Positions 14,701 through 36,500 of a stretch of 41,761 nt of DNA are shown piece after piece. Source of the stretch: Chrysochromulina tobinii. Taxonomy: Eukaryota. Numbering within the stretch: position 1 is the first letter of the stretch; every line of letters starts with the position of its first letter. Both the position numbers and the translations under genes were made by a program. The stretch is from the NCBI GenBank assembly GCA_001275005.1, contig JWZX01002622.1:1-41761 (forward strand), written 5' to 3'. The notes beneath the pieces are model-generated. The model saw only the letters and a program-made list of their open reading frames with translations, made no database searches and was not told the DNA's origin.

Positions 14701-16364
14701 AGCGCGGCGGCAACAGCCGCGCTGGCGTCGACCATGCCAAAGCCGTACTTGATGTTGTGGATGAAGCCAGCCGCGTTCGTGGTCCAGAGGGGGCTCGTGG
14801 GGTCGTTTCGGCTCGTCGTCGCCGCGAGGATCCCCTGCACGTCGCGCCAGCCGAGCAGCGGATTGGCTTCGAGCATGAGCGCGACCACGCCCGAGACGAC
14901 GGGGCACGCGAACGAAGTTCCCTGCAAGTAACTTCCTTCTACCAGCGCAGCACAGCCGCCGCCTGCTGCCGCCATGTACCAGCTGTTGCTGTGCTGATGT
15001 GAGTCGCCGCCCGGCGCGGTGATGAAGAGCGAAGAACCCGTCGTCGAGTAATACGCGTGCAAGCCGAGCTTGTCTGTGGCGCCGACGGTGATTGTGAAGC
15101 GCGAGTGCAAGTATTGCTCCATGTTGACGTCCTCGCCATGTGTGTACTCGTTGCCCGACGAAAAGACGTACACGATGCCGCGCCTGCTGCGCCCCTCGAG
15201 GACGCCACGCTGCAGAACCCGTACGGTGTCCCAGTGCAGGTGCGTGTACGCGCATGTCATCCAGAGGTACGTCCACAAGGCGCACTCGCCGTCCGCAACG
15301 TAGTTGTAGGAGTCCTGGCAGTAGGTCGAGATGACCGCTTCGCACGTGCTCGGCGGCGACGTCCAGCTGGCCCCGGCGCACTGGGAATCGCTGCACGGGC
15401 TGGTGCCCGAGGCGGCCGTGGCTGCAAAGGGACACCCCTGCAGCAGGCGCTGCCGGAGCTTGCGCCGCCCGGAGCTAGCGAGGGCTGTGCACGGGTCGAT
15501 CCCCCACGAGTTGGATGAGATGTGGTTTCGGTCCATGTTGCCGATGAACTTATCCTCGACGGTGTTGTAATAACTGCACTCGGACAGCGTCGCACCATAC
15601 GCGACGCCGCGAGAGCATCCGTCGTTATCGGCCGCGAGCGCGATCGCAGCCGTTATGGTTCCGTGTTCGCCGTCGCTTGGGATCGGGCACGACCCCAACG
15701 CATCATACTTGCCAGAAAAAGCGGGGTGCGTCTGATCGGTCCCATCATCGACTATGTTGATCGTCACGCCAGCACCAGTGTAACCCTCCGCCCAAGCGGG
15801 CAGCAGGTTGATCAAAGTGTGCGCCCAGGCGTTCATCTCGTAGTAAGGGTCGGTGACAGGCGAGGCCACGCAGCCGCTGCTGCTCGTCCAAGCATCGTGC
15901 GGGCAGAGGATGCGATCGCCTGGCAGCAGCGCCGATATCGGCGCAGTCGCACACAGCGCGCCTGCGGCACACCACCAGTTGGAGGTGCGGGCGGCCATGC
16001 AACTGCTGCACGTGTAGTGTGAGAACTGCCGTTGCCCACAGGTGGTGAACCCACAGGTAGCCGGACAATTGTAAGCCACGTCCGCGTAATACCGCGAAGA
16101 CGGCGCGCAATACCCAAGGAATGCCGCGGCAGCACACGTCGAATTGGAATACATGTCGACGCACTGCGCACAGTTGAGCCTACAGGTGGCCGGACAGTTG
16201 AGAGTCATGATCGCGTAGCCACTCGAAGACGCATTGCAATGCCCAAGGGCTGCCCCGGCAGCACAAAACGAAGCTGGCTGCACGTCGACGCACTGAAAGT
16301 GTGAAGCGGCCGAGATGGCGAGCAACGTGCTCAATGCTGCGAAGATGGATTTCATCGTCCCCAT
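11796..16364 (-). CDS. Kexin/furin-like S8B proprotein convertase: signal peptide, 2 ShKT domains, S8 domain, P-domain, TM, (AEKAA)n, ARM-like repeats, PDZ-like C-terminus
   Basis: Hydrophobic leader [17 protein letters not shown]; two CxD...NCPATC..C ShK-type motifs; catalytic IVDDG, HGT, SSGN and GTSFACP; LGWRDVQ and YGFG; P-domain [17 protein letters not shown]...[37 protein letters not shown]-like SIGLDL...TPAA...GMAIVSVNG. Start is ATG 16364 or 16355. Confidence 0.88.
12930..13670 (-). repeat. Coding 15-nt minisatellite encoding ([10 protein letters not shown])n
   Basis: Plus-strand GCCTTCTCGGCCGCC tandem array, in frame within the protease tail. Confidence 0.95.
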
Positions 16365-17548: not shown

Positions 17549-19917
17549 TTAGAGCGGGCTGAGCGTCACCCACGGAAAGTGGAAGCAGTCGGGCTGTCCC
17601 TCGTGCGAGAACGTGGCGTTGCTCCGGAGCGTGGACCAGCAAAAGACGGGCTGCTGGTCGTACGTCGGCCCCATGCGCACGTCGACCTCGGGGCCAACGG
17701 CTCGCGATCCCCCCCGGGGAGATGCGGCCGAGATCCCCGAGATGTCGACCTCGGGGCCAACGGCTCGCGATCCCCCCCGAGGAGATGCGGCCGAGATCCC
17801 CGAGATCACGCGAGATGCAGACGAGATCTTCGAGTCGGTCCCCCCCGACGGGTAGACGTCCTTGAGCTCGAGCTCGAGATCGCGACGGCTCGCGATCGCA
17901 TGCGACGGGTTCGCCTCACTCAGCGGATCCACCTTCCAGTTGTTGTACTGCATCAAGTCGCGCATGTCCGCCACCGTCGCGAGGGCGCCGTGGCGGTTTC
18001 GGAAGATGTTGGCGCGAGGGCACGAGTCCCAGCAGGAGTCGTTGTTCGGTGGCGTGGACACGCGCCCTAGCTCGCACGCCGCCGTGTTGCCCGATTTGCG
18101 CGAGATCTGGTCGAGATAGGGGATGTTGTACGAGGCCCAGTAGCCTTCCGCGTTGAGGAACCAGGTGAGGTCTTCCACACCGACCTCGCCCGGGATCTCC
18201 TCGGCGATGACGAAACTCTCGACCGGTAGGTCTTGGCCAGGGGTGAAGCGGCTGAGGTCGAGGATCTGCCACTGGTTCGTGTAGGTGCCTGCTCGGGGAG
18301 GGACTTCTGATGAGGGACACAATCACATGCAATCAGATGCAATCAGCGCACCTGCTGGAGGAGGGACTTCTGATGAGGGACACAATCACATGCAATCAGA
18401 GGCAATCAGCACACCTGAGGCCTCCTTTGCGAAGAGCGTCGCCCACGACGGCGCTGTCGTCGCGAGGGTGTTCGCGGTGATCGCTCGCGCCCAACAGAGG
18501 CACGATCTCGGCGTCACCAGCTCGAAGAGCTCCGGATTGTACACGTCATTAGTGGTCTCGATGACCGCGAGCTGTGCCGAGGCCGAGTGCACGATGTAAA
18601 AGTCGTCGAGCGATGCGAGCAACCCTGGCGAGGACGAGAAGTGCACCTGTGGGGAGAGTGGCAGTAGCGGAGGCGCCGCGGTGAGCACTTGCATGCGCGG
18701 CGGGTGAGGAGCAGCCCTGGCGAGCTCGCAATCTGGCGGCAGGAGCGGAGGCGCCGCGGTGAGCACTTGCATGCGCGGCGGGTGAGACGAGGGGCGAGCT
18801 CGCAATCTGGAGAGACGAGACGTGTACCTGGCGTATCTCCGGCTGCGGAGGCGGCGCGTGCGCGGACAGGTGGAGTAGTACCGGCAGGGAGAGGTGCTTG
18901 AAGGTGCGCGGACCTGTGGGGAGAGAGGCGCCGTGGTGAGCGCTTGCATGCTGGCCTCAGAAGGGAGAGGTGCTCGAAGGTGCGCGGGCCCATGGCCGAG
19001 AAGGAGCTCCAGGTCGTGTACTCAGGGGTCATCAGAGGTCATCAGAGGTCATCAGAGGTCATCAGGGGTCATCAGAGGTCATCAGGACCCATGGCTGAGA
19101 AGGAGCTCCAGGTCGTGTGTGCGAAGAGGACGTCACTCCGGTCCGGCAGCAGCTTGAAGAGCGACGAGCATCGGAGGTCCACTGGGAGCTCCGTCTTTGG
19201 ATAGTACAGTCTCGAGTTGTAGATGGGGCCGCGAGGGTCGAATCTCCGAGATTGGATCTCGGGCTGATGGAATTTGGACTTGATCGTGTACATGTCGCCC
19301 CATGCCTGCACAAAGAGCAGCTTGAGCACGTTCATCCCGGTCGACGGGAGCAGGTCCTCGGCCGTGTACGCGCCCGCCGCCAGCGCACCGAAGTCGAAGT
19401 CGAGGGCGCCGCGCGGGGCTTGCGGGCTCAAGCATGGCGACTGCGCATAGCCCTCAGCGATGCCATGGAGCTGCTCCAGCGTGGACTTGATGCTGAACCA
19501 GAACGCGTCCGCCGCGTGCGCCTCGGCCGCCATCCGCTCCATGTATAGGTAGTTCTCTACGATGAAGCCCACGATGGCCGCCGGCGGAGGGCCCTCGAAA
19601 TTCGAGTAGAACATGTTGGGATACGAGTCGCTGATGCCTTGGCAGGCGAGAGTGCCCTCGGCAAACCCGGCCGCGCGATACACTTTCAGGACATCCTCCG
19701 GCGTGCTCGCGTTCTCGGCCACCGTCTCGACGCTCAGATAGCCCCAGCCGCTCTCTTGAGTGTTGTTCGTGTAGCTCACGGAGACGAGCGCGCCGCTTGT
19801 GGGCCGGACCGCGCCAATCTGTAGGCCGCCGCGGCCGTCGACGTACACGTAGCTCCTGGGGTGCGGCTCGGCGCGCACGAGAGCACAAGATACTGCCGTA
19901 TACAAGAAGGCACTCAT
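17549..19917 (-). CDS. Phospholipase B-like (PLBD / lamina ancestor, Ntn hydrolase); exons 19917-19089, 18913-18828, 18646-18415, 18288-17549 (~628 aa)
   Basis: Signal peptide, SGWGYLSV, AAGFAEG, CSSLFKLLPDRSDVLFAHTTW (Ntn Cys), FSSSPG..SLDDFY, IETTN, SGTYTNQW (restored by splicing), YWASYNIPY, PRANIF, GGTDSK, GPT. All three junctions are frame-consistent. Confidence 0.92.
17681..17806 (-). repeat. 63-nt in-frame tandem duplication in the last PLB exon
   Basis: ISGISAASPRGGSRAVGPEVD x2; units start at 17681 and 17744. Confidence 0.92.
18289..18414 (-). other. Intron made of two back-to-back 63-nt GT..AG units
   Basis: Units 18414-18352 and 18351-18289 are near-identical; removing both restores ASGTYTNQW. 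Confidence 0.88.
18647..18827 (-). other. Intron (181 nt) with exon-like head and two copies of the acceptor cassette
   Basis: CAG|GTACACGTCTCGTC...CTCTCCCCACAG|GTGCACTTCTCGTC; GCATGCAAGTGCTCACCGCGGCGCCTC occurs twice. Confidence 0.85.
18914..19088 (-). other. Intron (175 nt) with CTGATGACCT repeats, an internal copy of the spliced junction and the acceptor cassette
   Basis: ATGG|GTCCTGATGACC...CTCTCTCCCCACAG|GTCCGCGC; splicing gives SAMGPRTFKH. Confidence 0.8.
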
Positions 19918-20120
19918 TGCGACGGACTTGAAGCGGAGACGATGCGCGCAGTGCTTCCAGCCAGGCCGATCCCGAGCCGTCCGCTGAATCCGTCCGCGGG
20001 CGCCTTCGGCCTCTCCGGAACTTGGGCGAGAACGTTCTCGGCAGTTTGGTACGCGAACTACTTGCACCTGTCCCCACGCTCTACCGGGCTTTGCCACGTC
20101 ATTTCGAGCGCTCGCGCGAG

Positions 20121-20966
20121 ATGCCGCGACTCGGCCGACCGCTCGCCGCCCTCATCATCGGCGTGGCGCTCCACGCCTGGGCCGCTCCGTCCGCGGACGA
20201 GCTGCAGGCCTTCCGTGATACGCGCGGCACCATGTGCCGTGCGGTCGTGCGCGAGATGCACATCGAGATCCACAAGCATAAGCTCCGCAAGAACGGCGAG
20301 GACGACATCTACGAGACGGTGCCGGCAATCTGCCTGGCGATCGTGCAGAACTACTCGCTCACGGCCACGGCACCGCCCTCGCGCAAGTGGTCGCTGAAGA
20401 AGCGGGCCGTGCGCCTCGACGATGACGACGCATTGGATCAGAATCCATCCATGATGATGCATCTGATCACGCTCAAGAAGGCGTGCGAGCACTTCACCGA
20501 CGACTTCCAGCAGGAGCTGTCAGAGCTCATGTACCGATCCGCGCTGCTGCACGACATTGAGCCGATCGTGTCCGAGTTCTGCGAGTCAGATGTGGTCGTG
20601 CAGCCGCCCAAGCCGCCGCCATCGCCGCGCAAGCGCGTAGTGGGCAGCGATGGCGGCGCCAACGGCGGCGGCAGCAGCGGCGGCAGCGGCAGCAGCGGCA
20701 GCGGCAGGAGGCTGAGCAGCGACACGAGCAAAACCAAGGACAGCAGCAGCAGCAGCAGCAGTAGCAGCGGCGGCGGCGGCGGAAGCAGCAGCAGCGGCAG
20801 CAGTGGCAGCAGCAGCAGCAGCAGCAGCAGCGCCCGTAGGAAGTCGAGCGCCAGCAGCGCAGGCGATCGGTCCGACACGGACGGCGGTGGGCGCATGCCC
20901 GATATGGCCGAGCTGCTCAAGCGGTTCGACACCGACGGTTCGATCTCGCCGGCGGAGAACCTCTGA
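20121..20966 (+). CDS. Secreted saposin-like (Canopy/MZB1-like) protein with Ser/Gly-rich tail; 3' end uncertain
   Basis: Signal peptide MPRLGRPLAALIIGVALHAWA and Cys spacing CRAVV...ICL...LKKACEHF...EFC. The ORF runs into the 10-nt repeat array, so the stop codon may be intronic. Confidence 0.6.
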   Translation: MPRLGRPLAALIIGVALHAWAAPSADELQAFRDTRGTMCRAVVREMHIEIHKHKLRKNGEDDIYETVPAICLAIVQNYSLTATAPPSRKWSLKKRAVRLDDDDALDQNPSMMMHLITLKKACEHFTDDFQQELSELMYRSALLHDIEPIVSEFCESDVVVQPPKPPPSPRKRVVGSDGGANGGGSSGGSGSSGSGRRLSSDTSKTKDSSSSSSSSSGGGGGSSSSGSSGSSSSSSSSARRKSSASSAGDRSDTDGGGRMPDMAELLKRFDTDGSISPAENL

Positions 20967-21586
20967 TGACCTCTGATGACCTCTGATGACCTCTGATGAC
21001 CTCTGATGACCTCTGATGACCTCTGATGACCTCTGATGACCTCTGCTGACCTCTGCTGACCTCTGATGACCTCTGATGACCTCTGCTGACCTCTGATGAC
21101 CTCTGATGACCTCCGATGACCTCCGATGACCTCTGATGACCTCTGATGACCTCTGATGACCTCTGATGACCTCTGATGGCCTCTGATGACCTCTGATGAC
21201 CTCTGATGGCCACTGATGACCTCCGATGACCACCGATGACATCGGACGACCTCGGATGACCTCTGATGACCTCCGATGACCTCTGCTGACCTCTGATGAC
21301 CTCTGATGACCTCTGATGATATCTGATGACCTCTGATGACCTCTGATGACCTCTGATGACCTCCGATGACCTCTGCTGACCTCTGATGACCTCTGATGAC
21401 CTCTGCTGACCTCTGATGACCTCTGATGACCTCTGATGACCTCTGATGACCTCTGATGACCTCCGATGACCTCCGATGACCTCCGAAGACCTCTGATGAC
21501 CTCTGATGACCTCTGATGACCTCTGAGGACCTCTGATGACCTCTGATGGCCTCTGATGACCTCTGATGACCTCTGATGACCTCTCA
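20958..21586 (+). repeat. ~62 copies of a 10-nt satellite (CTCTGATGAC)n
   Basis: Directly visible tandem array with variants CTCCGATGAC and CTCTGCTGAC. The same unit occurs in introns at ~19020-19086 and ~35286-35345. Confidence 0.97.
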
Positions 21587-21615
21587 TCACCGTCGCCGCG
21601 CTTCGTGTACAGCAC

Positions 21616-21740
21616 GCAATCAGGTGCAATCAGGTGCAATCAGGTGCAATCAGGTGCAATCGGATGTAATCAGGGGAGCCAGCTGGGCGCGGAGCACCTG
21701 CCAATCAGGTGCAATCAAGTGCAATCAGATGCAATCAGGA
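21616..21740 (-). repeat. (CTGATTGCAC)n 10-nt repeats in intron-like context on the minus strand
   Basis: Plus strand shows CAGGTGCAAT repeats; minus strand reads G|GTCCTGATTGC...GATTGGCAG|GTGCTCC. Confidence 0.75.
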
Positions 21741-21861
21741 CCGCATCGCTGCACGGGCTACCCGGTTGGCATCAGGACGCCAAGTTGGGGCCTGTGTGTG
21801 TGGGGCACGTGTTAAACGCGTTTACACGCATTTTTAAAGATAAAAGCGTATTCGCAGCCTA

Positions 21862-22122
21862 GTACCCGCGTATACGCACCCCTGCCTGCGTATACGCACC
21901 CCCCGCGTATACGCACCCCTGCCTGCGTATACGCACCCCCCGCGTATACGCACCCCTGCCTGCGTATACGCACCTACCCGCGTATACGCACCCTGGGGTG
22001 CGTATACGCACGTACCTGCGTATACGCACCCACACCCGCGTACAAGCACATGTGCGTAAACGCGGCGTCGGGTGCGTATACGCACCTACCTGCGTATACG
22101 CACCCGACGCTGTGTATACGCA
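21862..22122. repeat. Minisatellite with palindromic core GCGTATACGC (~17-20-nt units)
   Basis: About 12 copies of CGTATACGCA with CCCCTGCCT-type spacers. Confidence 0.92.
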
Positions 22123-23063
22123 GGGACGCGACGAACGTCATGGGCGGTCCGCGAACGTACCGCGAGCGCCGGACCACTTCAACACGCTGTGAGGAATTGA
22201 TTAGTCCTGCCGCGTGCTCTTGCGTTGCCACGCCCCCTGCCGCTGCCGCGACGCCCACCGCCGTGCCACGCCGGGCTGCGGCCGCACGTTTTCAAAGTAA
22301 CCCTTGTCCCTCTCCCAAACGGGGGGGGGCGGAGGGGGACCGCCCCCCCCTCATAGGGAGGCGTCCACGACGTCGATCAACGACGCCCCACTGCAAAGTT
22401 TATTGCAAAGACGAAACCTCGCACTGGCCAACCCACAACCCGTCGGGAAAGCGGGGTTCGATGGTGTGGGTTCTCGCACGCGCCCGTTCGTAAGGGGGCC
22501 GCGTCTGCCGTCTCGGGTGGGGTCGTGTCAGCGTCAACTTTGCAGGCCTCCGTACCATATTCAACACCCGGTAAGTACGCGCCCATCGCGTTTGGTTGGC
22601 GGGGTTTTTAGCTTTGAACGCGGTCTGCCGCTCAGCGGGGTCCCAGCTCGAGGTCCCAGCGGTCTCGGCCCGGCCTCGGGGTGCGTGCGCGCGGTGTCGC
22701 TCCGGTCGTACCGCCGAGCGCCGACCGGTACCGCACTACCGCTACCGGCCGTATCGGTCCCGGCGGAGGGGCGGAGGGTCACCAAAAGAAAACTTTCCTA
22801 TCAGTCTGCCGTGCTCTCAGCCGGCTCTATAGTAGACGTTCCCACCGCTCCACCAGCACCACTGTGAATGCTCGCGGCCCCCTCCATATAGGCCCGTACC
22901 TTGTAACAACCGTGCATGTTGGCATGCGCATAGAACTGGGGCGCCTCGGGATAAATCCCACATGTAACCACTGTGCATGCGGGCATGTGCATGCATCTTG
23001 GGTTCCCAGCACGACGTGTCTCGAGGCGCCCGGTTCGCCACCGCGCCCGCTCCCGGCCGCCCC

Positions 23064-23153
23064 GCTTCCTCCGCTTCCTCCGCTTCCTCCGCTTCCTCCG
23101 CTTCCACAGCTTCCTCCGCTTCCACAGCTTCCTCCGCTTCCACAGCTTCCTCC
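23064..23153. repeat. 9-nt microsatellite (GCTTCCTCC / GCTTCCACA)
   Basis: Direct tandem array. Confidence 0.9.
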
Positions 23154-23238
23154 GCCCTCGGCCATCAACAGCCATCTCCTCAGGGATGCGTCCGCGGGCG
23201 CATCTGGATCATCCGTCCCTGGTACTCGGTCTCGTTCA

Positions 23239-24258
23239 TTAGGGATGCGCATCCGGGCGCACCTGGATCGTCCGTCCCTGGTACTCGGTCTCGTTAAACA
23301 ATTGAATGGCCTTGGCAGCCTCGCGTGTCGAACCGAGCAGCACAGTCCCGTAACCCTTACTTGTTCCATCGGGCGCCTGGGCGACGTCCGCACGAACGAC
23401 CGAGCCCGCCTCGCGAAACATGTCCTTAAGATCCATCCATGTCGTCTCCCGAGGCAGACCGCCCACGAACACTTTGCACCCGTCGGTCGGCGCCACTGCC
23501 GAACCGCCGCGGCCAGCCATGCCGACGCCAGCGCCGCCCTCGCGGTCCTCGCGCACGAAGATCAGGCGGCCGTTCAGCTCGGTGTCGTGCAGCGTGCTGA
23601 TCGCCGTGGCCGCGTCGCGCGCGTTGGCGAATGTGACAAGGCCGCACCCCTTGGAGCGGGTGGTGCCAGGCTCCATCATCACGTCCGCATGCAGAACCTG
23701 ACCAACGGTCTTGAAATGATCCTTGAGGTCCTGCCACGACACGTCCCACGCCAGATTGCCAACGTAAACGGAGGCGCCGGCGCCAGCGGCACCGCCCCCG
23801 CCGCCCTTGCCACCGACTGCGACAGTGCCAACATCGGTGCCAGCATCGCGGTCCTCGCGCACGAAGATCAGGCGGCCGTTCAGCTCGGTGTCGTGCAGCG
23901 TGCTGATCGCCGTGGCCGCGTCGCGCGCGTTGGCGAATGTGACAAGGCCGCACCCCTTGGAGCGGGTCGTGCCAGGCTCCATCATCACGTCGGCATTGAG
24001 AACCTGACCAACGGTCTTGAAATGATCCTTGAGGTCCTGCCACGACACGTCCCACGCCAGATTGCCCACGTACACCGACTTGCCACCCTGCGGTTGAGCG
24101 CGGCCACTGCCCTTGCCCGCGCTCTTGGCTGCGGCATAGGGCGCTGGCCGGCGAATGGCGCGGGAACTGGCAGAGACTTTTCCTGGACCACCGCCCTTAG
24201 CAGGCCGGGACGATCCCCTCTTCATGAGTTGGTCCAGCGACATGTCCAGCGCGGACAT
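23239..24258 (-). CDS. Three-RRM RNA/ssDNA-binding protein (GBP2/HRB1/hnRNP M-like)
   Basis: RNP2 VYVGNL (x2) and VFVGGL; WQDLKDHF; RNP1 SKGCGLVTF / SKGYGTV; GRLIFVREDR; N-terminal LDMSLDQL resembling the ALY/REF UAP56-binding motif. Confidence 0.92.
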   Translation of the reverse strand: MSALDMSLDQLMKRGSSRPAKGGGPGKVSASSRAIRRPAPYAAAKSAGKGSGRAQPQGGKSVYVGNLAWDVSWQDLKDHFKTVGQVLNADVMMEPGTTRSKGCGLVTFANARDAATAISTLHDTELNGRLIFVREDRDAGTDVGTVAVGGKGGGGGAAGAGASVYVGNLAWDVSWQDLKDHFKTVGQVLHADVMMEPGTTRSKGCGLVTFANARDAATAISTLHDTELNGRLIFVREDREGGAGVGMAGRGGSAVAPTDGCKVFVGGLPRETTWMDLKDMFREAGSVVRADVAQAPDGTSKGYGTVLLGSTREAAKAIQLFNETEYQGRTIQVRPDAHP

Positions 24259-24882
24259 CGTGATTAGCTGCAGTGATTAGAGCAGATGCAGAATCCGTCC
24301 GGTAAGTCTCTCCACATTGACACGTCACAGCGAACCAAGTGAACAGACCGGGGACCCCGTGATCAAAACTCGACACATAGTTCACCGCCAAGTTGTGCAT
24401 TTGTTGTGTGAATGTGTGCATGTGTGTCTATTATGTGATTTAAACAGCACACGGAAACACGGGCGCTCAACAAGGGGCGCTCAATACATGTCCTTGATAC
24501 ATGTACAAGTACCGGTACACCAATTGATACATACATTGTTCATGAACAGCAATGTCTGAGCGGGCAGTAACAGTGCCGTTGCACACCGGTTGTCGCGTGT
24601 GGCGCGTAACGTTCAGACGAAGCTTTTGGGATGCGCAACATCATCGCGCCAAGTAAGTCGCCAAACACCCAAACTCCGGCTTCGTGCTGCCCCCCCAATA
24701 TTCATTTTTCTAGGGCCCCACGGATCCGAAAGGGAAAAAAGATACGGTCTTCACAGCCAAGGGTTGATTTCTTCACACGCCGCGGACGAGCGCGGAGAGA
24801 AGAACTGGAGGAAGCTTTTTCACGGAGGGGCGGAGAGAGGTGCTTTTGTCTGCCTTTCCGAGAGCCTTTCGGTGTTCACGAA

Positions 24883-27800: not shown

Positions 27801-29693
27801 AGCGCGTGCGTCCGACACGGCCTCTGTCTACTCTGACTCCACCTACTCGAGTGCTGTCACGAGCGCCGCTAGCAAGGCGCCAGCTGGGCCGGGGCCGGCC
27901 CAGGGAGGGGCGAGGCGGGCTGGAGCGAGCGGAGGCGGTGGCTACATGCAATCTCGAAGTCATCTCGGAGGCGGCTACATGCCTCTTGTCGACGAGGAGC
28001 CGGTAGAGGATGCCGGGCTCGGTTGGTTCCAACGAGCCTTGGGGGAGGGGGCAAAGCCGGCAGAGGATGCCGGGCTTGGCTGGTTCAAACGATCTGTTGT
28101 GCCTGTAGACCCCCTCCTCGTCAACAATGTGGGGGAGGAGGCGGAAACGCAAGGGCCGTTCGAAAGCTCCGAGCCTGGAGCCGAGCCTGGCGAGCTTCCG
28201 GATGGCGCCGAGATGGGCGCGCTCGTGTCCTCGGCGCTCTCCAGCCCGCGTAGCTCGTCGAGCTCGACCAATCTCGGAGTGATCTCGAACGGCTCGTATG
28301 CGAAGCCCCCCCCGAAGGGCTGGAGGCCCGTACAGGCGCGTGAGCCTGATGATGCGGATCATCGGATTCCATGGGTGGAGGGGCTGACAAGGGCGGACGC
28401 GGCCGCCACGTCTTCGGCGCATGCCGCCACCAGTGCGGCGTTCCCGGCGCTAACGGTCGACGAGCCCGTGCCCTCCGCAGCCGCCGCCGAGGGCACACTC
28501 GAGAGTTCCCAAAGCTCTTCCCACGCCGAGGGCACATTCGAGTCGGGGAGGAGGCAAGGGTCGGCGCCGAGCTCCTCGGCTGCATCTGCAGCCGGCTCGT
28601 CGGCTGCGATGGGCTCCTCGGCCTCGTGTATGTACCAGATTGGACGCGCCATCGCGCAGGTCTTCGGCTTCACGGCGCGTGACAACTTCGCGACAAACCG
28701 ACTCCTCTATCTTCTCAGCTGGGACATGTTCGCCTTCGGTGGGTGCGCGTCTGTGTTCGCACTGCTCTTGCTCATGCTGGCTCAGCAGTCGGCGAGCCTG
28801 CAACCCGATCGCAACCTGACACTGCCGATCGTGCTGCTCTCACCTTCCTTTTATGGCTCATGGAGAGTCGAGATCACCTTCTTCCTGGTGCGGCTCGTGT
28901 ACGCACTCTCAGCGCTCCCCTTTATGATCTTTCACCTGCCTTTTGTGCGCGACCTCCTCTCGCACACTTTCGCGACGGGCTACACGAAGCGCGGCGTGTG
29001 CGTCGCCTACGATCGGAGCGGCCTCAGCGCCTTTATAGAGTGGCTCGATCAGTTCCTCCAGCTGCCAGCGGCTCAGGTACTTAGCACCAAGGAGCGCGCG
29101 AAGATCGAGAAAGCCCTGACTGTGGCGCGAGAGTGCCTCGTGGACGAGGATGGCGGCGAGCTCGAGCGCCCGCCGCCGAAGCAGGTGACCACGCGACATA
29201 GAGCGGACCTCATCAGTGCGCTCGAGGCGATCGTGCCGCCCACGCACCCGCTCTTCCCACAGCTCTTTCCCGAGCGACAGATTTGCCTTGAGTACGCGGA
29301 GCGCGTGCGTCACGAGGCGGCCCGTAAGCGCGAGGGCGCTGTGAAAGCGGCCCGGAGCACGAGCCAGACTGCGTTCAAGAGCTGGGAGGAGCACCAGTCT
29401 TCCAAGTATGGAGAGGCGTGGCAGTCTTCCTCGCGCATGCAACTGCTCACTACGGCGCCTCTCCTCCCCACAGGTATGGAGTGGCGTGGCAGCGCGACAG
29501 CGAGGCGACCAACTGCACGCTGTGTGACAGCGCCTTCCACCTGCTTTTGAGGCGGCGCCATCACTGCCGGCTGTGCGGTCGGCTCGTTTGCGACCCGTGC
29601 TCCAAGTCGCGTCGTGTGCCACGTGGCAGCAGCAACAGTGCGAAGCCCGAGCGTGCATGTGATCGATGTGCGCAGGACACTGAAGACGCATGA
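24883..29693 (+). CDS. Large multi-pass membrane protein with C-terminal FYVE finger; exons 24883-26873, 26966-27125, 27379-29405, 29474-29693 (~1465 aa)
   Basis: Three frame-consistent GT-AG introns join the ORFs (LLYAYLPYDRSTW, DEYQ|LMQFIMALKG, SSKYGVAWQRD). Several hydrophobic segments. FYVE motifs WQRD, CTLC, RRHHCRLCG, VCDPC, RACDRC. Confidence 0.82.
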
Positions 29694-30429
29694 CAGTGAA
29701 GATGCGATGCGATCGTGGATGCGAAGATGGAGGCGGCGACGTCCTTGGCCTTGCGCCTTGCTCACGTACACGTCCCGCATCTTGGACGGCGGCAGCCGAA
29801 CGACGTGAGCGATGAAAGTGCTGCCGCGCGCGCCCGCCGCGGGTCAGAACTAAGTTACCCGCTGGACCAACTTTTTGATGGACCAACTTGTTGGTCTTTC
29901 GATCACCATACGTCGCCATTGAATCCTCGCGCGCGCCTCCCGCTGGCAGGCACACCGAACGCACCCCCACGCACACTATACAGTGCCCCCAAACCCGGCC
30001 GTCGAGCCCCTCGCGGCCTCGTTTCTCAATTCTTTCTCTTGGTATGAATGACGTCGATTTGTACTCGTTCATCCTGGGAGAGTCCTCGGTCGTGTGTGAC
30101 CTGACACCCGCGTGTCGATCCCTAACCCTCCGCTCGGTCCGGTCGAAAGTCGATTTTCGTTTGGGGGGTGGCGCCGCGGAAGGCGCTATGCCCCGTACGG
30201 CCTACATGCGCTATACACTGTTAATACACTGAACACGGTTTGTTATTCAGTACCGTGAGAAGCGAAAGCAGAAAACATTGCAGTCAGCACCGCAGAACGG
30301 TCCCAGCCGAACATAGCTGCACAGGTACGCATCTGCTGAAAGTAACCTGAATCGCTCCGTTCTTGGCATCGAGCGCTGAGATATCCGCTGTCGACCCGCC
30401 GATTGCGAGGAGCGTGGCAAGCCACTGTG

Positions 30430-32634
30430 TCAATCTGCCGGTTCGGCGGGCTGATACGCGAGTTGCACGTGGAAGACCCACGCGCATGAAGCTCGGCCAA
30501 GATCCTCTTCCCGATTGCAAGAGGCAAGAGTGCTCTTGCCGATGCCTTCGCGCCCGCTTTTGTGAGCTTCCTGTGCAAAGGACGCCTCAGCAGACCCACG
30601 AGGCACGACTCGCCAAGTACGCTGGCATTCTGCACAGTAATCAGGCTCGGGGTCACCTGCGCGACGACGCTTGCAGCTGAGCGCCTCACGCACAGCGTAG
30701 TTCATGCGGTTGTGTTGGTGCACAACAGAGATTGTAGCGTTGCGCATGTTGAGCACCACGCCGCGATGGTTGAGTAGGACATCTCGGCCGATCCTCATGC
30801 CTGCAGCGCCCGAGATGTACACCTCGTCGTATTGTAGCACACGCACCGGCACTGGGCGTGGCTGCCGAAGAAACTCGTTGTAGAGGAGCCAGATGTGGAT
30901 GCCTTGGTCGTAACCCTTAGCGAGCATCCAATTCTCCGTCTCCAACCGCGGAAGCCGTGGCACCAGCAGCCGATTGACCTCTGCGGCCATCCTCTCCAGG
31001 TACAAACTCATGCCTGTTCGCCGCCCCATCGTGTAGCCCGACGTGCTGACGTTGCGCATGCTGATCTGCTCGAGGCTCTTTCTGCCGTACAAGTTCACGA
31101 CCCAGTACTTGTTGCCGTGACTGCGGCCAATAATGTCCTTGTCGTTACCGAAGATGAGATCATCTTCGGGACCGATGCGCACAAAGGGATCCGCTTGGAA
31201 GACCACATCCGAGGCGTCGCTGACTGCCACCTTGTAAAATGTGCGCCCCTCGGGCCCTCGGAGATAGTCGGCGTACACATTGTACCGAAAGACTTGCGTG
31301 AAGCGCGAGTGGTTGTAGGAAGCAGGCCAAGGAACCAGCTTGATACGAGGATGTGGTGGATTGAAGACGGACACGGCCGAAGCTGGCCGAACAAAGAGCA
31401 CGAGAAGGGCATCGGGCACGTGCTTCAAGAAGGAGCAGATGAAGGGCAGGAACCTTGAGGGTGGGAAGCCGTCAAAGCTGACAGTGGCAAAAACTGCGTT
31501 TTGCATGGTTGGCCTGTCGTTGACCACGGTGCCGAAAACGAGAGCATCGTCCGGCTTTTGTTGGCCGGAGCGACGCCCCTTTCGAGTGGAGCGGTTCGGC
31601 ATGAGCATCTTGTCAAAGAGCTCGTAGATCGCAGCACGTTTGAAAATACGCGCAGGAGCGAATCGGTCCCCAAAAATGCGATGGCGCTCGGCGGCCAGTG
31701 CCTTCCGCTCAGCGGAGCTTAGGTTCGCAATTTGCCGATACGCGATAGCAATGCCCGTCAGGTTATCCCGTGTGATGTTTGCAAAGGTCAACAAGCCTGC
31801 GTACGCGTTCTCATCCTTGGGATAAGCGCGCTCGGAGATGACGAGGCCACCAGCATTGAGGATCTTGGTCACACGGAAGGTGATGGGGTTGTGCGGGTCG
31901 CCGCAACCCTTGTGGATGTTCAGAAAGATGTCGTGCTGCTGAAGCAGTTGCGCGTATTCTGCCTCGGTCCAGACGTCATCACGCCTGTACAATCCGTGGT
32001 TCCCGAGTAGGTCCGGCGATGCCAAGTGCCGAATGCACCAGTAGCGAGCTATGTAACCCATGTTCCGCGAGAACGAGCCGAGGAAGAAAAGCGGAGGTGG
32101 CAGTTGCGGGTGCCCCACCGAGTGCTTCACCGGCAGTGCTCCTAGAGGGACCCAACGTTGCACCGGCGCTTGCAAACTGCGCCGACAAACATCGATCGTA
32201 TGCCATGAAAAGTCCCATATCTCGTCGACAACATCACTCCTGAAAGCGCACTCATGCAGCGGCTCAGTTTGGTAAAAGACACTGAAAACTCTGCGTCGTC
32301 GCAGATTGGCCCACGGAACGTAGCGACGTCCAGCCTCGCCTACCCAAATAAAAAAGTCGCCGCGTCGCGTGATCTTTGACGCATTGGCGATCTCCTCAGC
32401 CGTAACGCTAGCATATGAGAAGCGGATGTTGCTCAGCCCCGCATATTGTTGCACGCCTGCAACCAAAGTCGACACCACCGGCTCGTAGATGGAGGCGAGC
32501 TTCAGATTGTGCCGACGGACTCCACGTGCCGACCATATGATCAGCGCCGGCGCGTCCGGCGTGCTCGCGAGTGTCGGCGGCGACATGGTGAACGCCTCCG
32601 CGCCGCGTCGAGTCCAGGCACGACCCTCCGCCAT
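30430..32634 (-). CDS. Putative two-domain glycosyltransferase-like protein
   Basis: 734-aa ORF. The N-half has YQTEP...FLNIHK...FRVTKIL..GGLVISE (GT-B-like C-terminal signature). The C-half has SDASDVVFQADPF, DQGIH and HQHNR (GT-A-like DxxD/DQG). Confidence 0.6.
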   Translation of the reverse strand: MAEGRAWTRRGAEAFTMSPPTLASTPDAPALIIWSARGVRRHNLKLASIYEPVVSTLVAGVQQYAGLSNIRFSYASVTAEEIANASKITRRGDFFIWVGEAGRRYVPWANLRRRRVFSVFYQTEPLHECAFRSDVVDEIWDFSWHTIDVCRRSLQAPVQRWVPLGALPVKHSVGHPQLPPPLFFLGSFSRNMGYIARYWCIRHLASPDLLGNHGLYRRDDVWTEAEYAQLLQQHDIFLNIHKGCGDPHNPITFRVTKILNAGGLVISERAYPKDENAYAGLLTFANITRDNLTGIAIAYRQIANLSSAERKALAAERHRIFGDRFAPARIFKRAAIYELFDKMLMPNRSTRKGRRSGQQKPDDALVFGTVVNDRPTMQNAVFATVSFDGFPPSRFLPFICSFLKHVPDALLVLFVRPASAVSVFNPPHPRIKLVPWPASYNHSRFTQVFRYNVYADYLRGPEGRTFYKVAVSDASDVVFQADPFVRIGPEDDLIFGNDKDIIGRSHGNKYWVVNLYGRKSLEQISMRNVSTSGYTMGRRTGMSLYLERMAAEVNRLLVPRLPRLETENWMLAKGYDQGIHIWLLYNEFLRQPRPVPVRVLQYDEVYISGAAGMRIGRDVLLNHRGVVLNMRNATISVVHQHNRMNYAVREALSCKRRRAGDPEPDYCAECQRTWRVVPRGSAEASFAQEAHKSGREGIGKSTLASCNREEDLGRASCAWVFHVQLAYQPAEPAD

Positions 32635-33545
32635 GTTGTCGCCTCTCCGCGGAACAACGACGCCAACGACTGAGCAAACCCCGCATCTGTTCTTCCTATG
32701 TCCCGGCTCCCCCCGGTGTCGCCCCCGGTGTCGTCAGCTCGTCACCTCTTTGCTAATCTTTCAATGCCGGTTTGTGCCGTGAAAAACAGCATGCGCTTTA
32801 AAACTCAGTCCATATTACCATATTCGATGGTGCTAGTTCAATTCGCGTTAATATGCGGGTCGTCCGGCGGGTACAGCGATGAAGTGAGAGTACAGGAGCG
32901 TATACAGAAACTGCTGTCTCGGAATTTGGAATCTGTATTTTGTCTTTCAATTTCCAAATCGCAGGGCGAGGTGCGCAAGTTGGATTCTGCATGGCGATAT
33001 CTGGATCTTGAAATCTGTCCAGGTTCCAAAACCCGCGGCGAGGCGCGGAATCTGGATTCTGGATGGCCCGCGCCGGTTCTTGGAAACTGGTAACTGTTCC
33101 CCCTTGTGTTTTGAACCGGTACCGCTCCTTTCTTGGGAACTCGGAATCTTGGAAAGTGGAAACTGCGATCACTTTACCGGTACTGTACCGTACGCCGCGG
33201 GGTATCCTTTACCCTTACAGTACTGTACATAGCGTACTGTACGGTACGTCGTACGTGTGTCCTGTGCGTGCGAGCATGCCGTCCCGGCTTCCCGCCGAGG
33301 TTTCTTCTTTCTTGACCAATTTCTTCTAACAATCTAAGTTCTATGTCAATCCGGTAAGTTGAATTTTAAAGTCGTTGAATGCGGCCGGGGACTCGAGGTG
33401 AACACGAAACGAAACCGGACACCGTTGAAACACCCGGGCATGAACACTCTTCATAAAGCCGAACACCCACCCACAGGTTAGAGGTTTTGATTGGGGGTCA
33501 CCCACAGATGCAAGGCGCTTCCCAAAAGGTCAGCCAGATGAGACA

Positions 33546-36500
33546 TTAGAAGACAGTCTGATGTGAGCTGAGTCTGTCAGTCGACAGGCGCTCGGACGAA
33601 ACGCGCTCCGACGACGGGCGCTCTGACGAAACGCGCTCCGACGACGGGCGCTCTGACGAAGTCCGACTGGACGAGGATTTGGGGAAGGCAGCTTCGAGCA
33701 TGTCGCTCGTCGACAGCCCCTTCCACTGGTCGAGCCGGTTGCTGTCGAACTCACCGAGGATGGATTCGTGAGCTGCGTCAGGCACTGCGCAGTGTTCGAA
33801 GTTGAGCTTCCTCTGGAGCACGAGGGCTCTGGGACCTGCCCGAGACGTGCACTTGCTGCTGGGTGCCGGGGTGCTGCACTGTGCCGTGCCTTTCTCGGAG
33901 TCGGATACGGAGGACTGCCCACCGTCGGCGTCAGCAACCTGTGCGAGCGTCAAGTACTGTTTTCCTTTCGCCTTGGCCGCACTCTTGGACGGCTTCAAGG
34001 CCGACTTGGGCGTGAGCTCCGAGGACGAGATCGATGAGGTTGACGAATGAGCCCCTGGCAGTCTGGACGGGGTCGAGATCGAACCTGGCGATCTGGAAGG
34101 GGTCGAGATCGAACCTGGCGATCTGGACGGGGTCGAGATCGAACCTGGCGATCTGGACGAGCTGGTCCCTGGCTGGCGTGACGTAGATGGGCTCTTCGTC
34201 TTCTTGAGGCGTGGAGTCCGAGAGGCCTTGAGGCGAGCCGACTTGAGCCGGGCGGTTTTGAGGCGGGCCGACTTTGAATGCTCATGCAAGCTCGTGATGC
34301 TCTTCGGGGGTGATCGTGCCCGCGCTTGGGCCGCTTCCACAGCTGCCTGGATCACGCTCAGTTCCTCCTCTCGTCTGGCGGAGCCGAGGCGTGCGAGCTC
34401 GTCTGCTTTGGACGGATGCGGCAACTGCGAGCGCCATGTGGGCGGCGCCCGCCCCTCGCGCTTCAGGTGGCTGAGCACACGCGTGGCCTCCTGCACACAG
34501 GCCTCATAGACGGGGTTACGGCTGTTCTGGTTGCCGGCGCCGGTGGCCTCGTTGAGAGCGCGAAGGAGCTGTGGGGAGAGGGGCGAGGCTCCGATTTGAG
34601 CACTTACACACTTACATGCAAGGCTAGGGCTTGGGGGTTGAGGGCAAAAAGGAGGAGCTGCGCGCACCTCCGCCGCCTCGGCGGTGGAGTAGCCGAGCCA
34701 GAGTCGCCCTTCTCGAGAGGGCGAGCGGGAGGGCGAGCGGGAGGAGCGTGCGGCCCCGCGTGCCGTCCCACGAGAGGACTGTGGGGAACGTGCGGACGTG
34801 CTCGAGGGGGAGCGCCTCGGCGGGGTGACGAACTCGAACTCGGTCTGGGGTTGATCTTCATCTTGTGGAGCCGCCTTACGGAGTGCCCCGCCTTTGCGCG
34901 GCGACGACAGATTGGTCGGCACCCAACTCGGCGCCTCAGTTGGCCCTCTTGGAGCGAGCTCGAACTGAGATCGCTCCTCCTCCTCCTCCGCGTCCTCCCA
35001 CTCTTGGCGGCCGTGCTCGGGCCGAGGATGGAGTGCCTTCGTAAGCGCCACGTGGGCATTCTGCATGCGCCGCTCGGGGATCACGTGCTCAGGCTCCTGC
35101 TTGCACGGGTGCCAGCCCAGCCAGCCTTCGTTCCTCGCGTCTCTCAGGTTGCTGAGGGTCTGCCGGTCCAGATCGCGTCTTCGAGCGTTCATCTCTTCGA
35201 GCGTCTCCTTGGCCTTGGCGCGCTCTTCCTCCGTCACTCGCAGCACACTCTCCAACCTCGCTGCCTTGAGAGCGGCCTGTACCTGCAATCAGAGGTCATC
35301 AGAGGTCATCAGAGGTCATCAGAGGTCATCAGAGGTCATCAGAGCTCTCCAATCTCGCAACCTTGAGAGCGGCCTGTACCTGCAATCGGGGGGAGGCACT
35401 CCGTTGCCATCAGAGACAATCAGGGGTGGCCAACAGACGCAGCCAGGGGCCATCAGAGGCCATCAGAGGCACTCCGAGCTGAGTGTACCTGCACTGGATC
35501 AGATGAGAGCTCGGCGACGGCGAGGTGTGCGCCCGTCCCGGCGCCCGTCACCGCCGTCACTGTGGGACTTCCGTGGTCAACGCTCGGCCCGCCCGCTTTC
35601 AACGCAATGTCGAGCGGCGACGCGCCCCACTTGTTCTGGATCGCCTTGTGGGCCCCATGATGCAGTAGCGTTCGGATCACGGCAGGGTTGTTCTTGCGAG
35701 CGGCCTCGTGAAGAGCAGTACTCCCATCGACGCTGACGAGATTGACGATCTCGACGCCGAGATTGCTTGCGAGCACGAGCAACGCGTTGCACACACCGAG
35801 GTGGCCTGCTCGCACCGCGTAGTGCAGCACGCTCAAACCGTACATATCCACTGCAGTGAGCACCTCCTTCGCGCTTGTATGGTTGCCAAGGCGGCCGCTG
35901 AAGCTTAAGACGAGGTCTAGAACGGGCAGCTTGCCGCTCTTGGCCGCCCAGTGCAGCGGCGTCTGTCCCAAGGTATCGGTCTGAGTCAGCATCTCCCCCC
36001 TCTGGGCAGGCCCGGCACTCTCGAGGATCTGACGGAGCGGTTTGAGGTGCGTTCCGGTGCGCATGCATAGCCACACGAGCAGCTTGCGCCCCTCCCTAAT
36101 ATGGGCAAGCATGGCTCGCCAGGTGTTGATCGCACGCCGCGGGGCAATACCGAGGAAGGCGCTCGCCGCTCGCCTCCGCGCACGCACTTTTCTCATGATC
36201 TCATTCAGGCCGGCCCAAAACCGGCGCGCGCCCCAAATGTATTCTTGCACTTGCTTCACCTTTTCAAGCTTGGCCACCAACGCGCGCTTCTCCTCGACCA
36301 ACTTGAGCCAGCGCCGCACGAGGTAGCACCTCTGATGATGCCGATCAGCGCGGTCGAGCATACTCTTGACTCGCAAGAGCTCCCTGAACCGCTCAAGCGC
36401 CTCGAGCTTCGCCGCACCTTCCGGGTCGACGATTCTGCGGAAGCCATCGCGCAATCGCTTGCGCTGGGCGGCCAGCTGCATGAACTCGACCCGCCACTTG

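Follow-up and report, generated by a model that had tools for sequence, protein, structure and literature searches.

A short repeated cassette beside long host-exon duplications in introns of Chrysochromulina tobinii, a candidate introner

The window analyzed here, a stretch of 41,761 nt of the Chrysochromulina tobinii genome (contig JWZX01002622.1), carries copies of a cassette of about 42-50 nt that recurs in many introns, mostly beside a duplication of 13-45 nt of the host exon. The best explanation, held with confidence and doubt in about equal measure, is that the cassette is a non-autonomous copy-and-paste introner. In the cassette, a short and variable 5' linker is followed by a 25-nt core bearing a branch-like CTCAC motif, a CT-rich tail and a terminal CACAG. 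The introns are composed of an upstream duplicate starting with GT or GC, followed by the cassette. Since splicing from the GT to the cassette AG takes out exactly one duplicate together with the insert, the mRNA is restored. On this view the element is an introner that brings its own 3' splice site and takes its 5' splice site from the target duplication. We infer the insertion of the cassette from the structure of these introns, since the motif scan showed no empty site at which the same exon lacks the insert.

A 27-nt consensus, with up to three mismatches allowed, matched the window at 18670-18696, 18748-18774 and 18925-18951 on the minus strand and at 29435-29461 on the plus strand, whereas 100 dinucleotide-preserving shuffles yielded no match. 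A profile built on these four strong copies recovered them at E 2e-11 to 8e-10 and weakly matched a fifth stretch, 34581-34608 on the minus strand (nhmmer, E 0.009, 11.9 bits). An earlier note on this DNA had reported a repeated motif at these five places, and with four strong copies, one weak copy and none expected by chance the report is borne out. All five copies are in gene sense, as had been claimed. The assignment to three genes also holds, with the correction that the five copies occupy four introns, two of which belong to a phospholipase B-like gene. Four of the five copies end at the acceptor AG, three of them by a direct RNA joint and one indirectly, in agreement with the earlier count. 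The summed DNA word depth was 3965 at position 18926 and 712 at 29457, compared with about 45 for single-copy contigs, and twelve DNA contigs branch apart at 18928.

The first intron of interest in the phospholipase B-like gene (175 nt, 18914-19088, minus strand) is flanked by exons with Pfam matches to Phospholip_B and contains a decamer array, a pseudo-exon copy and cassette copy 1. This copy (18914-18960, minus strand) has a short 5' linker, a core of 25-27 nt at 18925-18951, a CT tail and CACAG at the acceptor. An RNA joint in run X16 (18909>19085, cut +4) omits the 175 nt and verifies the acceptor at 18914; the joint is not present in DNA run X1. The copy read from 18951 therefore ends at the acceptor as had been proposed, but its intron starts at 19088 and not near the cassette. 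Upstream of the cassette lies an intronic duplicate of its target (28 nt, 18962-18989, minus strand), which now starts with GC and copies the exon start at 18886-18913 (minus strand), where the exonic duplicate begins with GT immediately after the acceptor AG. The local alignment of the two reached a score of 23.5, a value attained in 0 of 1000 shuffles. The repeat search also located an array of 10-nt, tctgatgacc-like units within this intron (19022-19091, minus strand), bordered by 34-nt direct repeats at 18986-19019 and 19085-19118; the array appears to be another insertion, again accompanied by a long duplication, at this junction. The other intron of this gene (181 nt, 18647-18827, minus strand) holds two cassette cores, 18748-18774 and 18670-18696, in a 78-nt tandem unit, and only the last copy reaches the used acceptor. 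It is spliced away in RNA contigs of X12 and X13 and likewise, with a shifted cut, in X16. At its start (18807-18827, minus strand), this intron carries a copy, now diverged, of the exon start at 18625-18646 (local alignment score 10.5; 7 of 1000 shuffles as high).

The third intron, of 68 nt, lies on the plus strand (29406-29473); in it a duplicate (29406-29424), a linker (29425-29434), the core (29435-29461) and the tail (29462-29473) follow one another. Directly after the tail, the repeat search placed the exonic duplicate (29474-29492, plus strand); 18 of the 19 nt are identical in the two copies, and none of 1000 shuffles was as good. The exon that follows (29475-29690, plus strand) encodes a FYVE zinc finger (Pfam FYVE, E 3.2e-20, profile positions 2-65 of 67). 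The joint across 29406-29473 is not spanned by any contig; RNA contigs of three runs stop at 29413 and resume at 29474, and one X12 RNA contig reaches 29424 and then continues with the letters following 29492, as expected of the spliced form. The fourth intron (99 nt, 34569-34667, minus strand) contains the diverged cassette-like stretch at 34581-34608, has a CCCCACAG end and is omitted in an X16 RNA contig; its flanking duplication is not significant, as 129 of 1000 shuffles reach the score.

Removal from the mRNA is thus seen directly for three window introns and indirectly for one, all of the RNA evidence being in the form of assembled contigs. The three RNA joints (18647-18827, 18914-19088 and 34569-34667) read CT..AC on the plus strand, that is GT..AG in gene sense, and none of them was found when sought in DNA run X1. 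In each of these four introns the 5' part repeats, in diverged form, the first 19-28 nt of its own downstream exon, the similarity at 34569-34667 not being significant. The earlier note had described the 5' parts as unrelated to each other, which is correct, but each is related to the exon downstream of it. Its view of a mobile acceptor half is thus supported in part, but the 5' halves are not arbitrary, each of them duplicating the exon start following the cassette. This duplication suggests that whole introns arise in one step, from the cassette plus a target duplication, like known introners whose splice site is taken from the duplication (PMC9860276).

A metagenome motif scan returned at least 140 stretches with 158 instances in 143 clusters, including at least 135 distinct copies flanked on each side by 150 nt or more; these loci stem from several assemblies, in which strains or species are possibly mixed. 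With at least 135 copies, many similar elements reside in introns of unrelated genes. The acceptor half, comprising the branch-like CTCAC, the CT tract and CACAG, is a repeated unit in gene sense and seems to be mobile. Among the matches listed, the cores were identical in 83 of 135 copies, and 117 of the 135 had a pyrimidine tract plus AG, with a CCCCACAG tail end in 84 of these 117. The tail had a median of 17 nt among the matches listed, the CTCAC branch-like motif lying 10 nt plus the tail from the AG, and the introns were at least 57 nt long, half of them 79 nt or less (median 79 nt). Orientation was corroborated by the downstream exons: of 75 examined among the matches listed, 14 matched a Pfam family in sense and none did so in antisense. 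The families include WD40 (two copies, one contig), filamin (two), myosin, dynein AAA, bromodomain and JmjC, and several of the matches begin at exon residue 1-3, in the middle of the domain.

The footprint of duplication, with its recruited splice site, is seen in most copies. Among the matches listed, 88 of the 117 copies with tract and AG carried a significant flanking duplication (gaps allowed, above the controls' 99th percentile). For the best ungapped repeat across the core, the median score among the matches listed was 20, against 8 in two controls, and 100 of the 135 copies exceeded the controls' 95th percentile. The exact layout, in which the exon is followed by a GT-duplicate, a short linker, the 25-nt core, the CT tail and CACAG, and then by the second GT-duplicate, was present in 77 of these 88 copies among the matches listed; for this, a duplicate had to begin no more than 3 nt from the start of the exon, and both copies had to open with GT or GC. 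Of these 77 listed copies, 70 were GT/GT, four GC/GC and three GC/GT. Duplications measured 13-45 nt among the matches listed (median 28, interquartile range 22-33), the probe having been extended to 45 nt at most, and the duplicates were identical in 26 of 66 ungapped pairs listed. At the left boundary, the 73 copies considered among the matches listed read (A)G followed by GT(G/A)CG; no motif was found at the right boundary of the same number of listed copies.

Several features suggest that new copies are made from existing ones. Among the matches listed, 129 pairs of copies had at least 5 nt in common directly upstream of the core, compared with 15 pairs in a control 45 nt further upstream. 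The linker of copy L051 is the end of the exon-derived duplicate of L050, which lies about 2.5 kb away on the same contig, and the join falls within a 5-nt overlap; similarly, the linker of L106 includes 4 nt of the exon-derived duplicate of L027. Because some copies bear a few bases of another copy's exon-derived flank, existing copies appear to have served as templates. Linkers are otherwise heterogeneous among copies; in some, the sequence shared on the 5' side extends further, and a few adjoin arrays of decamer repeats. About 10 of the 135 copies among the matches listed have no CT tail and AG, and the duplicate stands directly after the core. At least one copy, L123, carries its own GT and takes its AG from the end of the duplicate, and by eye L090, L117 and L119 do the same. 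The tail-less copies and those with an AG drawn from the duplicate show that either end is variable, as would also fit repair-based copying.

In the preferred model of a copy-and-paste introner, existing intron copies would be the template for new ones, with a 3' end precise at the AG and a variable 5' start that may take in bases of the parent's own flank, while the second cut in the target would fall at a variable distance. The insertion chemistry is something we infer from such marks, which would favor target-primed, retroposon-like synthesis at a nick, possibly of intron RNA, over a cut-and-paste transposase. The GT at the start of the duplication may have been kept by splicing selection or favored by short homology with the parent's GT-starting exon. 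It is a tentative and rather doubtful proposal that the excised intron RNA is itself the template for new introns. The excised intron stops precisely at the AG. From this end it would be copied over a variable distance, into the exon-derived 5' part of the parent, by a reverse transcriptase using a nick in a transcribed gene for priming, and a second nick 13-45 nt away would produce the long duplication. If true, this route would amount to retroposition of spliceosomal introns that seeds new introns, half of each being made from the host exon.

The principle of an element with a 3' splice site of its own that obtains its 5' splice site from a target duplication is already known. Splice-site recruitment from the target duplication was reportedly first shown in Aureococcus and Micromonas by Huff et al. 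in 2016. Introners of Symbiodinium and those of classes 4 and 5 in Polarella are described as having their own 3' splice site and a 5' site from the target-site duplication (PMC9860276; bioRxiv 10.1101/2020.10.14.339549). As far as these accounts go, the likeness to the cassette is close: numerous short elements, almost identical to one another, recur within introns of unrelated genes and always in gene sense, AG forms the end of the element, the initial GT (or GC) of the duplication becomes the donor, and the element is spliced out with one duplicate so that the mRNA is unchanged. The known introners of these accounts, however, have fixed duplications of 3-9 bp, mostly TIRs and mostly a length of about 100 nt or more, whereas the cassette, at about 45 nt, has no inverted repeats, has variable duplications of 13-45 nt that account for about a third of the intron, and shows a fuzzy 5' end in which parental flank may be included. 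This combination of tiny size, lack of inverted repeats, fuzzy 5' end and long variable duplications is not described in the portions of the literature cited here.

Target-primed reverse transcription leaves duplications of variable length and inserts that are precise at the 3' end, reach a variable distance on the 5' side and join there through short overlaps, and the duplications of non-LTR retroposons and SINEs are usually 7-20 bp long. The cassette copies show these classic marks in their variable-length duplications, precise 3' end (from which about 10 tail-less copies among the matches listed deviate), variable 5' extent and short 5' overlaps. Unlike such retroposons, the cassette has longer duplications, its 3' end is a splice acceptor, and it shows no visible internal promoter or partner element; its tail is CT-rich with a CACAG end, and no A-rich, poly(A), simple-repeat or other recognizable retroposon tail was found. 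Nor was a partner reverse transcriptase seen in the window: of 113 ORFs of at least 130 aa, 81 were scanned, and none of these matched a family of reverse transcriptases, transposases, endonucleases or Rep proteins. In the Rogers model, an exon segment containing AGGT is duplicated in tandem and the acceptor also comes from the duplicate, with no foreign insert. The cassette introns are likewise partly duplicated exon, with the upstream copy's GT serving as donor, but it is the cassette that supplies the putative branch site, the tract and the AG, and this foreign piece of about 45 nt forms the 3' half, so that the intron as a whole is not an exon duplicate. Non-LTR-derived introners account for about 5% of the classified families in the portion of the survey cited (PMC12130899). 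In Daphnia pulex neointrons, as reported in the part of the study cited, an insert is likewise accompanied by a direct repeat of adjacent exon bases at its opposite end, and repeated events at one site lengthen the intron; the repeats there are 4-12 bp and the inserts mixed, whereas here one conserved cassette is flanked by repeats two to four times longer (PMC4202315).

Such repair events provide the most serious competing explanation, which we consider possible yet unlikely. It dispenses with a dedicated element and invokes staggered or processed double-strand breaks in transcribed genes, at which repair synthesis switches to an ectopic intron copy by microhomology-mediated template switching or synthesis-dependent end joining; a return upstream of the break would leave insert and duplication. 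The family would expand because every product would be a good donor, and a GT-starting exon would supply homology for the return. The variable duplication length, the motif-free right boundary, the variability of both ends (tail-less copies and AG-from-duplicate copies), the 5-nt overlap and carried-along parental flank at the L050/L051 join and the proximity of these two copies, 2.5 kb apart on one contig, are all consistent with it. Decamer arrays unrelated to the core also have flanking duplications of 33-34 nt, so that the duplication may belong to host repair rather than to the cassette, and the cited part of the Daphnia study explains its 4-12-bp flanking repeats by staggered breaks (PMC4202315). 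Repair filler in the same account is of mixed origin, however, and here one 25-nt core lies behind at least 135 inserts, with 83 of 135 listed cores identical. The exact joining of AG to GT in 77 of the 117 copies listed would also rarely be expected of unaided template switching, unless selection is very strong.

We regard as improbable a further reading of the cassette, as a miniature DNA transposon with one exact and one imprecise end, like Replitron-1 and some Chlamydomonas Helitrons, that depends on a transposase or HUH/Rep (rolling-circle) enzyme whose gene lies elsewhere in the genome. In the part of the Chlamydomonas reinhardtii study cited, Replitron-1/N1 and non-canonical Helitron insertions are copy-and-paste, orientation-specific at a dinucleotide, and have an exact and a fuzzy, parental-flank end with variable duplications, and all three marks of Replitron-1/N1 have a counterpart in the cassette copies, the fuzzy end and variable duplication being seen in L050/L051 and L027/L106 (PMC10288648). 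As read from the sequence, the core also contains a 12-nt palindrome wherever CTT stands before it, and its last six bases, GGCGCC, are palindromic as well. The Replitron-1/N1 and Helitron elements described there are nevertheless 0.9-3.6 kb long, carry a Rep gene as well as a palindrome and terminal direct repeats, and are not introns, and none of these features was shown for the cassette (PMC10288648). Its fuzzy end also lies on the opposite side of the fixed target dinucleotide from that of Replitron-1. The earlier statement that the window offers no TIRs and no encoded enzyme stands: the cassette termini are non-complementary, no terminal inverted or direct repeats were detected, no Rep HUH gene or transposase occurred among the 81 window ORFs, and DNA folds of five cassette strands were no better than shuffles (z -1.4 to +1.4), giving no subterminal hairpin signal. 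The variable rather than fixed and short duplications likewise depart from MITEs and TIR transposons, published introners of the TIR type having fixed duplications of 3-9 bp in the accounts cited (PMC9860276; bioRxiv 10.1101/2020.10.14.339549). It is very improbable that the shared sequence is the organism's strong branch-site and polypyrimidine consensus, or reflects gene conversion between intron ends, with no insertion at all. The CTCAC does lie at the usual distance from the AG and CCCCACAG-like ends also occur without the core, but a 25-nt core identical in 83 of the 135 copies listed goes far beyond a splicing consensus, other RNA-verified introns of the window (29805-29949 and 18288-18413) do not have it, and the flanking duplications contradict this reading, which leaves unexplained why the remainder of each intron copies its own exon. 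It is hardly credible that the pattern stems from faulty assembly or from a tandem duplication confined to the window: X1 DNA contigs do break at cassettes and the 18774/18696 pair is a local 78-nt tandem unit, yet the layout recurs in at least 77 copies from many independent assemblies, and RNA contigs from two kinds of library splice the introns at the predicted bases, both of which contradict it.

Under the copy-and-paste introner model, tandem units would stem from later slippage between the two duplicates. Such units occur at several loci; L125 has two cores, compared with one in a 98%-identical stretch of L064.

A repeated unit of ~45 nt, in which a branch-like motif is combined with a tract and an AG, lies in sense orientation inside many genes. 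It is flanked by a long duplicate of exon sequence and is spliced out along with one of the duplicates. The window, eukaryotic DNA with a GC content of 56-68%, matched the consensus that the earlier note had put forward for this acceptor cassette four times at no more than three mismatches (18670-96, 18748-74 and 18925-51 on the minus strand, 29435-61 on the plus strand), against no match in 100 shuffles. The motif is therefore truly repeated, and a profile built from the four copies recovered all of them with E values of 2e-11 to 8e-10. The same profile gave a weak match (E 0.009) to a fifth, diverged copy claimed at 34581-34608. The host genes are a phospholipase B-like gene on the minus strand (17552-20151; Pfam Phospholip_B on three exon-sized frames), whose protein is 59% identical to its closest relative, a plus-strand gene around the 29435 cassette with a FYVE finger as last coding exon according to Pfam, and a gene without Pfam match at 33549-35288 that holds the 34619 copy.

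To follow splicing, runs on mixed-culture and freshwater samples that contain the window were identified, and their RNA contigs were aligned to it. The minus-strand intron of 181 nt at 18647-18827 was skipped in three RNA runs, X12, X13 and X16, the cut in X16 being shifted; the 175-nt intron at 18914-19088 and the intron at 34569-34667, both on the minus strand, were skipped in X16. An unrelated minus-strand intron of 126 nt (18288-18413) was skipped whole in three RNA runs, and the joints of 18647-18827, 18914-19088 and 18288-18413 were absent from the DNA run X1. These RNA joints demonstrate that an acceptor in use terminates each of three cassettes (18696, 18951, 34619), as had been proposed, and the copy at 18774 is indeed an internal extra one, since it lies within the 181-nt intron removed in RNA. 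The joint of the FYVE intron was bridged by none of the contigs among the RNA runs compared. Contigs of three RNA runs ended at 29413 and resumed at 29474, and one RNA contig reached 29424 and continued with a loose end of 11 letters equal to those behind 29492, as would be seen in the spliced form; the cassette at 29435 thus very probably ends at a used acceptor as well. The poly(A) RNA of X16 carried many single-base differences and small indels relative to the window (27810, 30092, 30172, 33695), including an insertion of 21 nt behind 27810, and hence represents another strain of the same organism. Two further introns were noted on the way. The one at 18288-18413 is a tandem duplicate of an intron-like unit of 63 nt, extending from GTGYGCTGATTGC through CCCTCATCAG as far as CAG. 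On the plus strand, an RNA-verified GT..AG intron of 145 nt (29805-29949), with neither cassette nor decamer repeats, lies behind the FYVE stop codon (about 29691) and belongs to either the 3' UTR or a different transcript.

Read in gene sense, the start of a cassette intron is a copy of the bases directly behind its own acceptor. The score of each such duplicate was compared with 1000 shuffles. On the plus strand, 18 of 19 nt were identical between the intron copy 29406-29424 and the exon copy 29474-29492, and on the minus strand the duplicate spanned 28 nt (18962-18989 and 18886-18913); no shuffle reached either score. The third pair, 18807-18827 and 18625-18646 on the minus strand, is diverged (7 of 1000 shuffles), and for the intron starting at 34667 the repeat with its own downstream exon was not significant, its score being reached by 129 of 1000 shuffles. 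The fifth copy has an RNA-supported acceptor (34569-34667 in X16), a weak profile match and no significant duplication. The half-introner reading of the earlier note stands as far as an introner kind with a mobile-looking acceptor unit is concerned, but it had overlooked the exon duplicate that forms the intron start. The 175-nt intron is a composite of a decamer array, a pseudo-exon that still reads as uninterrupted coding sequence, and the cassette, and the two cores inside the 181-nt intron form a tandem unit of 78 nt.

The summed DNA word depth on the core reached 3965 at 18926 and 712 at 29457, compared to ~45 on single-copy contigs; these depths do not give a copy number, but they show that copies are many. 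At 18928, twelve DNA contigs diverged. A pattern of 25 nt containing four free positions, run against public metagenome contigs, retrieved at least 140 stretches with at least 158 instances, or at least 143 clusters after copies with common flanks had been merged. At least 135 distinct copies had 150 nt or more on either side of the core; the window's own locus was absent among the matches listed. The following counts refer to copies among the matches listed. The 25-nt core was identical in 83 of 135. The best ungapped direct repeat across the core had a median score of 20, compared to 8 in both controls, one using the reverse-complemented flank behind the core and the other the downstream flank of a different locus, and 100 of the 135 copies exceeded the controls' 95th percentile. 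A pyrimidine tract with AG within 80 nt was present in 117 of 135 copies, and in 88 of these 117 a gapped test placed the upstream copy of the exon start above the 99th percentile of the swapped-locus control. The full layout, with the duplicate beginning no more than 3 nt from the exon start and both copies opening with GT or GC, was found in 77 of 117 (70 GT/GT, 4 GC/GC, 3 GC/GT).

Among the matches listed, duplicates measured 13-45 nt with a median of 28 nt, 45 nt being the probe maximum, and one ungapped duplicate extended over 46 nt. Median lengths were 7 nt for the linker between duplicate and core, 17 nt for the tail and 79 nt for the intron, the shortest intron among these copies measuring 57 nt. 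For the matches listed, 84 of 117 copies had a tail ending in CCCCACAG, and 4 had one ending in CTAATTAG; 26 of 66 ungapped duplicate pairs were identical, with a median identity of 0.97. The left boundary of the target, again among the copies listed, read (A)G before and GT(G/A)CG behind the junction; the right boundary showed no motif among them. The boundary GT may result either from selection for splicing or from targeted insertion. Four copies with the usual core (L017, L093, L124, L135) ended in CCCTAATTAG in place of CCCCACAG. Motifs of the CCTAAT type recur close to other intron ends, which suggests that tails may be exchanged between intron families.

In DNA this rich in GC, an open-frame test failed to separate the strands (sense 61/74, antisense 58/74, unspliced 53/74) and was replaced by a Pfam search on the translated, unbroken downstream exons. 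It covered 75 of 77 sense candidates, two with fewer than 40 open codons being left out, and 75 of 77 antisense ones. Among the matches listed, a Pfam match was obtained for 14 of 75 downstream exons when read in cassette sense and for none of 75 when read in antisense, in agreement with the gene-sense orientation described before. Several of these matches (myosin head, dynein AAA, bromodomain, JmjC) start mid-domain at exon residue 1-3, which places the predicted acceptors inside conserved coding sequence.

Inverted termini and a fold signal were both absent from the cassette, consistent with the absence of TIRs stated in the earlier note. Rfam returned no match at gathering score in 18500-19200; of two matches below threshold, one fell on a decamer array. 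The 5' edge is fuzzy, with linkers of 0 to more than 30 nt that differ between copies. Nevertheless, 129 copy pairs had at least 5 nt in common directly upstream of the core, compared to 15 in a control 45 nt further upstream. The seven-base linker of copy L051 consists of the end of the exon-derived duplicate of L050, ~2.5 kb apart on one contig, plus one base, the join lying inside a 5-nt overlap; likewise, the linker of L106 holds four bases of the exon-derived duplicate of L027. Both pairs give the copying a direction and indicate that existing intron copies act as templates and that the start of copying can vary in its distance upstream of the core. About 10 copies among the matches listed have no tail, the duplicate following directly behind the core. 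In L123, a GT of its own precedes decamer repeats and the end of the duplicate supplies the AG, and by eye L090, L117 and L119 are built alike; L075 and L137, considered for the same group, were rejected as having the usual layout in an automated ungapped search, in which L123 was clean. Tandem units occur in L023, L039, L054, L076 and L125, the last having two cores, against a single one in a 98%-identical stretch of L064. In a further pair on one contig, L015 and L016, ~1.2 kb apart, both cassettes have a 9-nt linker in common, and the intron-start duplicate of L015 matches the exon behind the L016 cassette; the arrangement looks as though two copies of one cassette had received ~1.2 kb inside or between them.

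Arrays of 10-nt units (ctgatgacc, ctgattgcc and tgacgaaccc types) fill many introns and were seen at 19022-19091 and 20438-21639 of the window, at 211-250 of L141, and in L137, L078, L024 and L061. Where flanks are readable, the arrays are bracketed by direct repeats of host sequence of 18-34 nt: 34 nt in the window (18986-19019 and 19085-19118), about 33 nt in L141 and about 18 nt in L137. They often begin at the same GT as a cassette duplication, and the 1.2-kb array at 20438-21639 reached a DNA word depth of 13,000-15,000. The arrays may belong to a second family of intron-building repeats or result from the same process as the cassette. L141, filed under viral_contigs, has cassette and array at the end of a 4.5-kb contig, of which 360 nt were read; it is more likely protist DNA than virus.

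The cassette would insert by copy-and-paste, the duplicate representing a target-site duplication, and synthesis would be primed at a nick in the target. Such priming is suggested by a 3' end that is precise, a 5' extent that varies and includes parental flank, an overlap where the 5' end is joined and a duplication of variable length, a combination that does not appear to be the mark of a fixed-end transposase; we regard the chances of this insertion mode as evenly balanced. Its main rival is that template-switch repair of breaks made the inserts, which accounts for the tail-less copies, for the long duplications around unrelated decamer arrays and for the donor lying close by. Another rival is an element of the Rep type, raised because Replitron-1 of Chlamydomonas combines a fixed target dinucleotide, a fuzzy end with parental flank and variable duplications (PMC10288648). 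The insertion mechanism can be tested, as the organism grows in mixed culture and both DNA and RNA data exist.

The origin of new spliceosomal introns is a long-standing question, and the best-supported source so far are introners, mostly short DNA transposons with fixed duplications of 3-9 bp. The cassette family is of the introner kind, with an unusual insertion footprint. [quoted passage not shown] Such recruitment is an established introner principle, and elements of Symbiodinium and Polarella have their own 3' site, a 5' site from the duplicate, duplications of 3-9 bp and, in most families, inverted repeats (PMC9860276; bioRxiv 10.1101/2020.10.14.339549; PMC11282704). A 2025 survey counts 1,093 families, among which are non-LTR-derived families and others whose mechanism is unknown (PMC12130899), and exon repeats of 4-12 bp are given for Daphnia neointrons (PMC4202315). 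In the portions of the introner literature at hand, neither duplications above 9 bp, here 13-45 nt, nor a half-intron unit of ~45 nt were found described, and survey supplements may list such cases. The long variable duplications, the fuzzy 5' end and the parental flank carried along point to a different insertion process. Former coding sequence can thus make up a third of a new intron, and one junction can be struck repeatedly, a simple route by which an intron of 60-80 nt becomes longer and composite. The family seems to be active, since many duplicates are still identical and the number of units differs between strains; at orthologous loci, cultures and lake samples diverge by 2-10%. Gene finders will mis-call these introns because the intron start resembles coding sequence.

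Some other features of the window were recorded. GCATGC occurs 38 times, compared to ~13 estimated by hand from base composition, and a core preceded by CTT gives a 12-nt palindrome, CTTGCATGCAAG. An RRM protein has the haptophyte Prymnesium parvum (54%) as top named relative, followed by diatoms and other stramenopiles (42-49%). On the plus strand, a single long frame at 8840-11641 fuses an alpha/beta-hydrolase domain with MenC-like domains, a fusion reminiscent of the PHYLLO genes of the phylloquinone pathway in plastid-bearing organisms.
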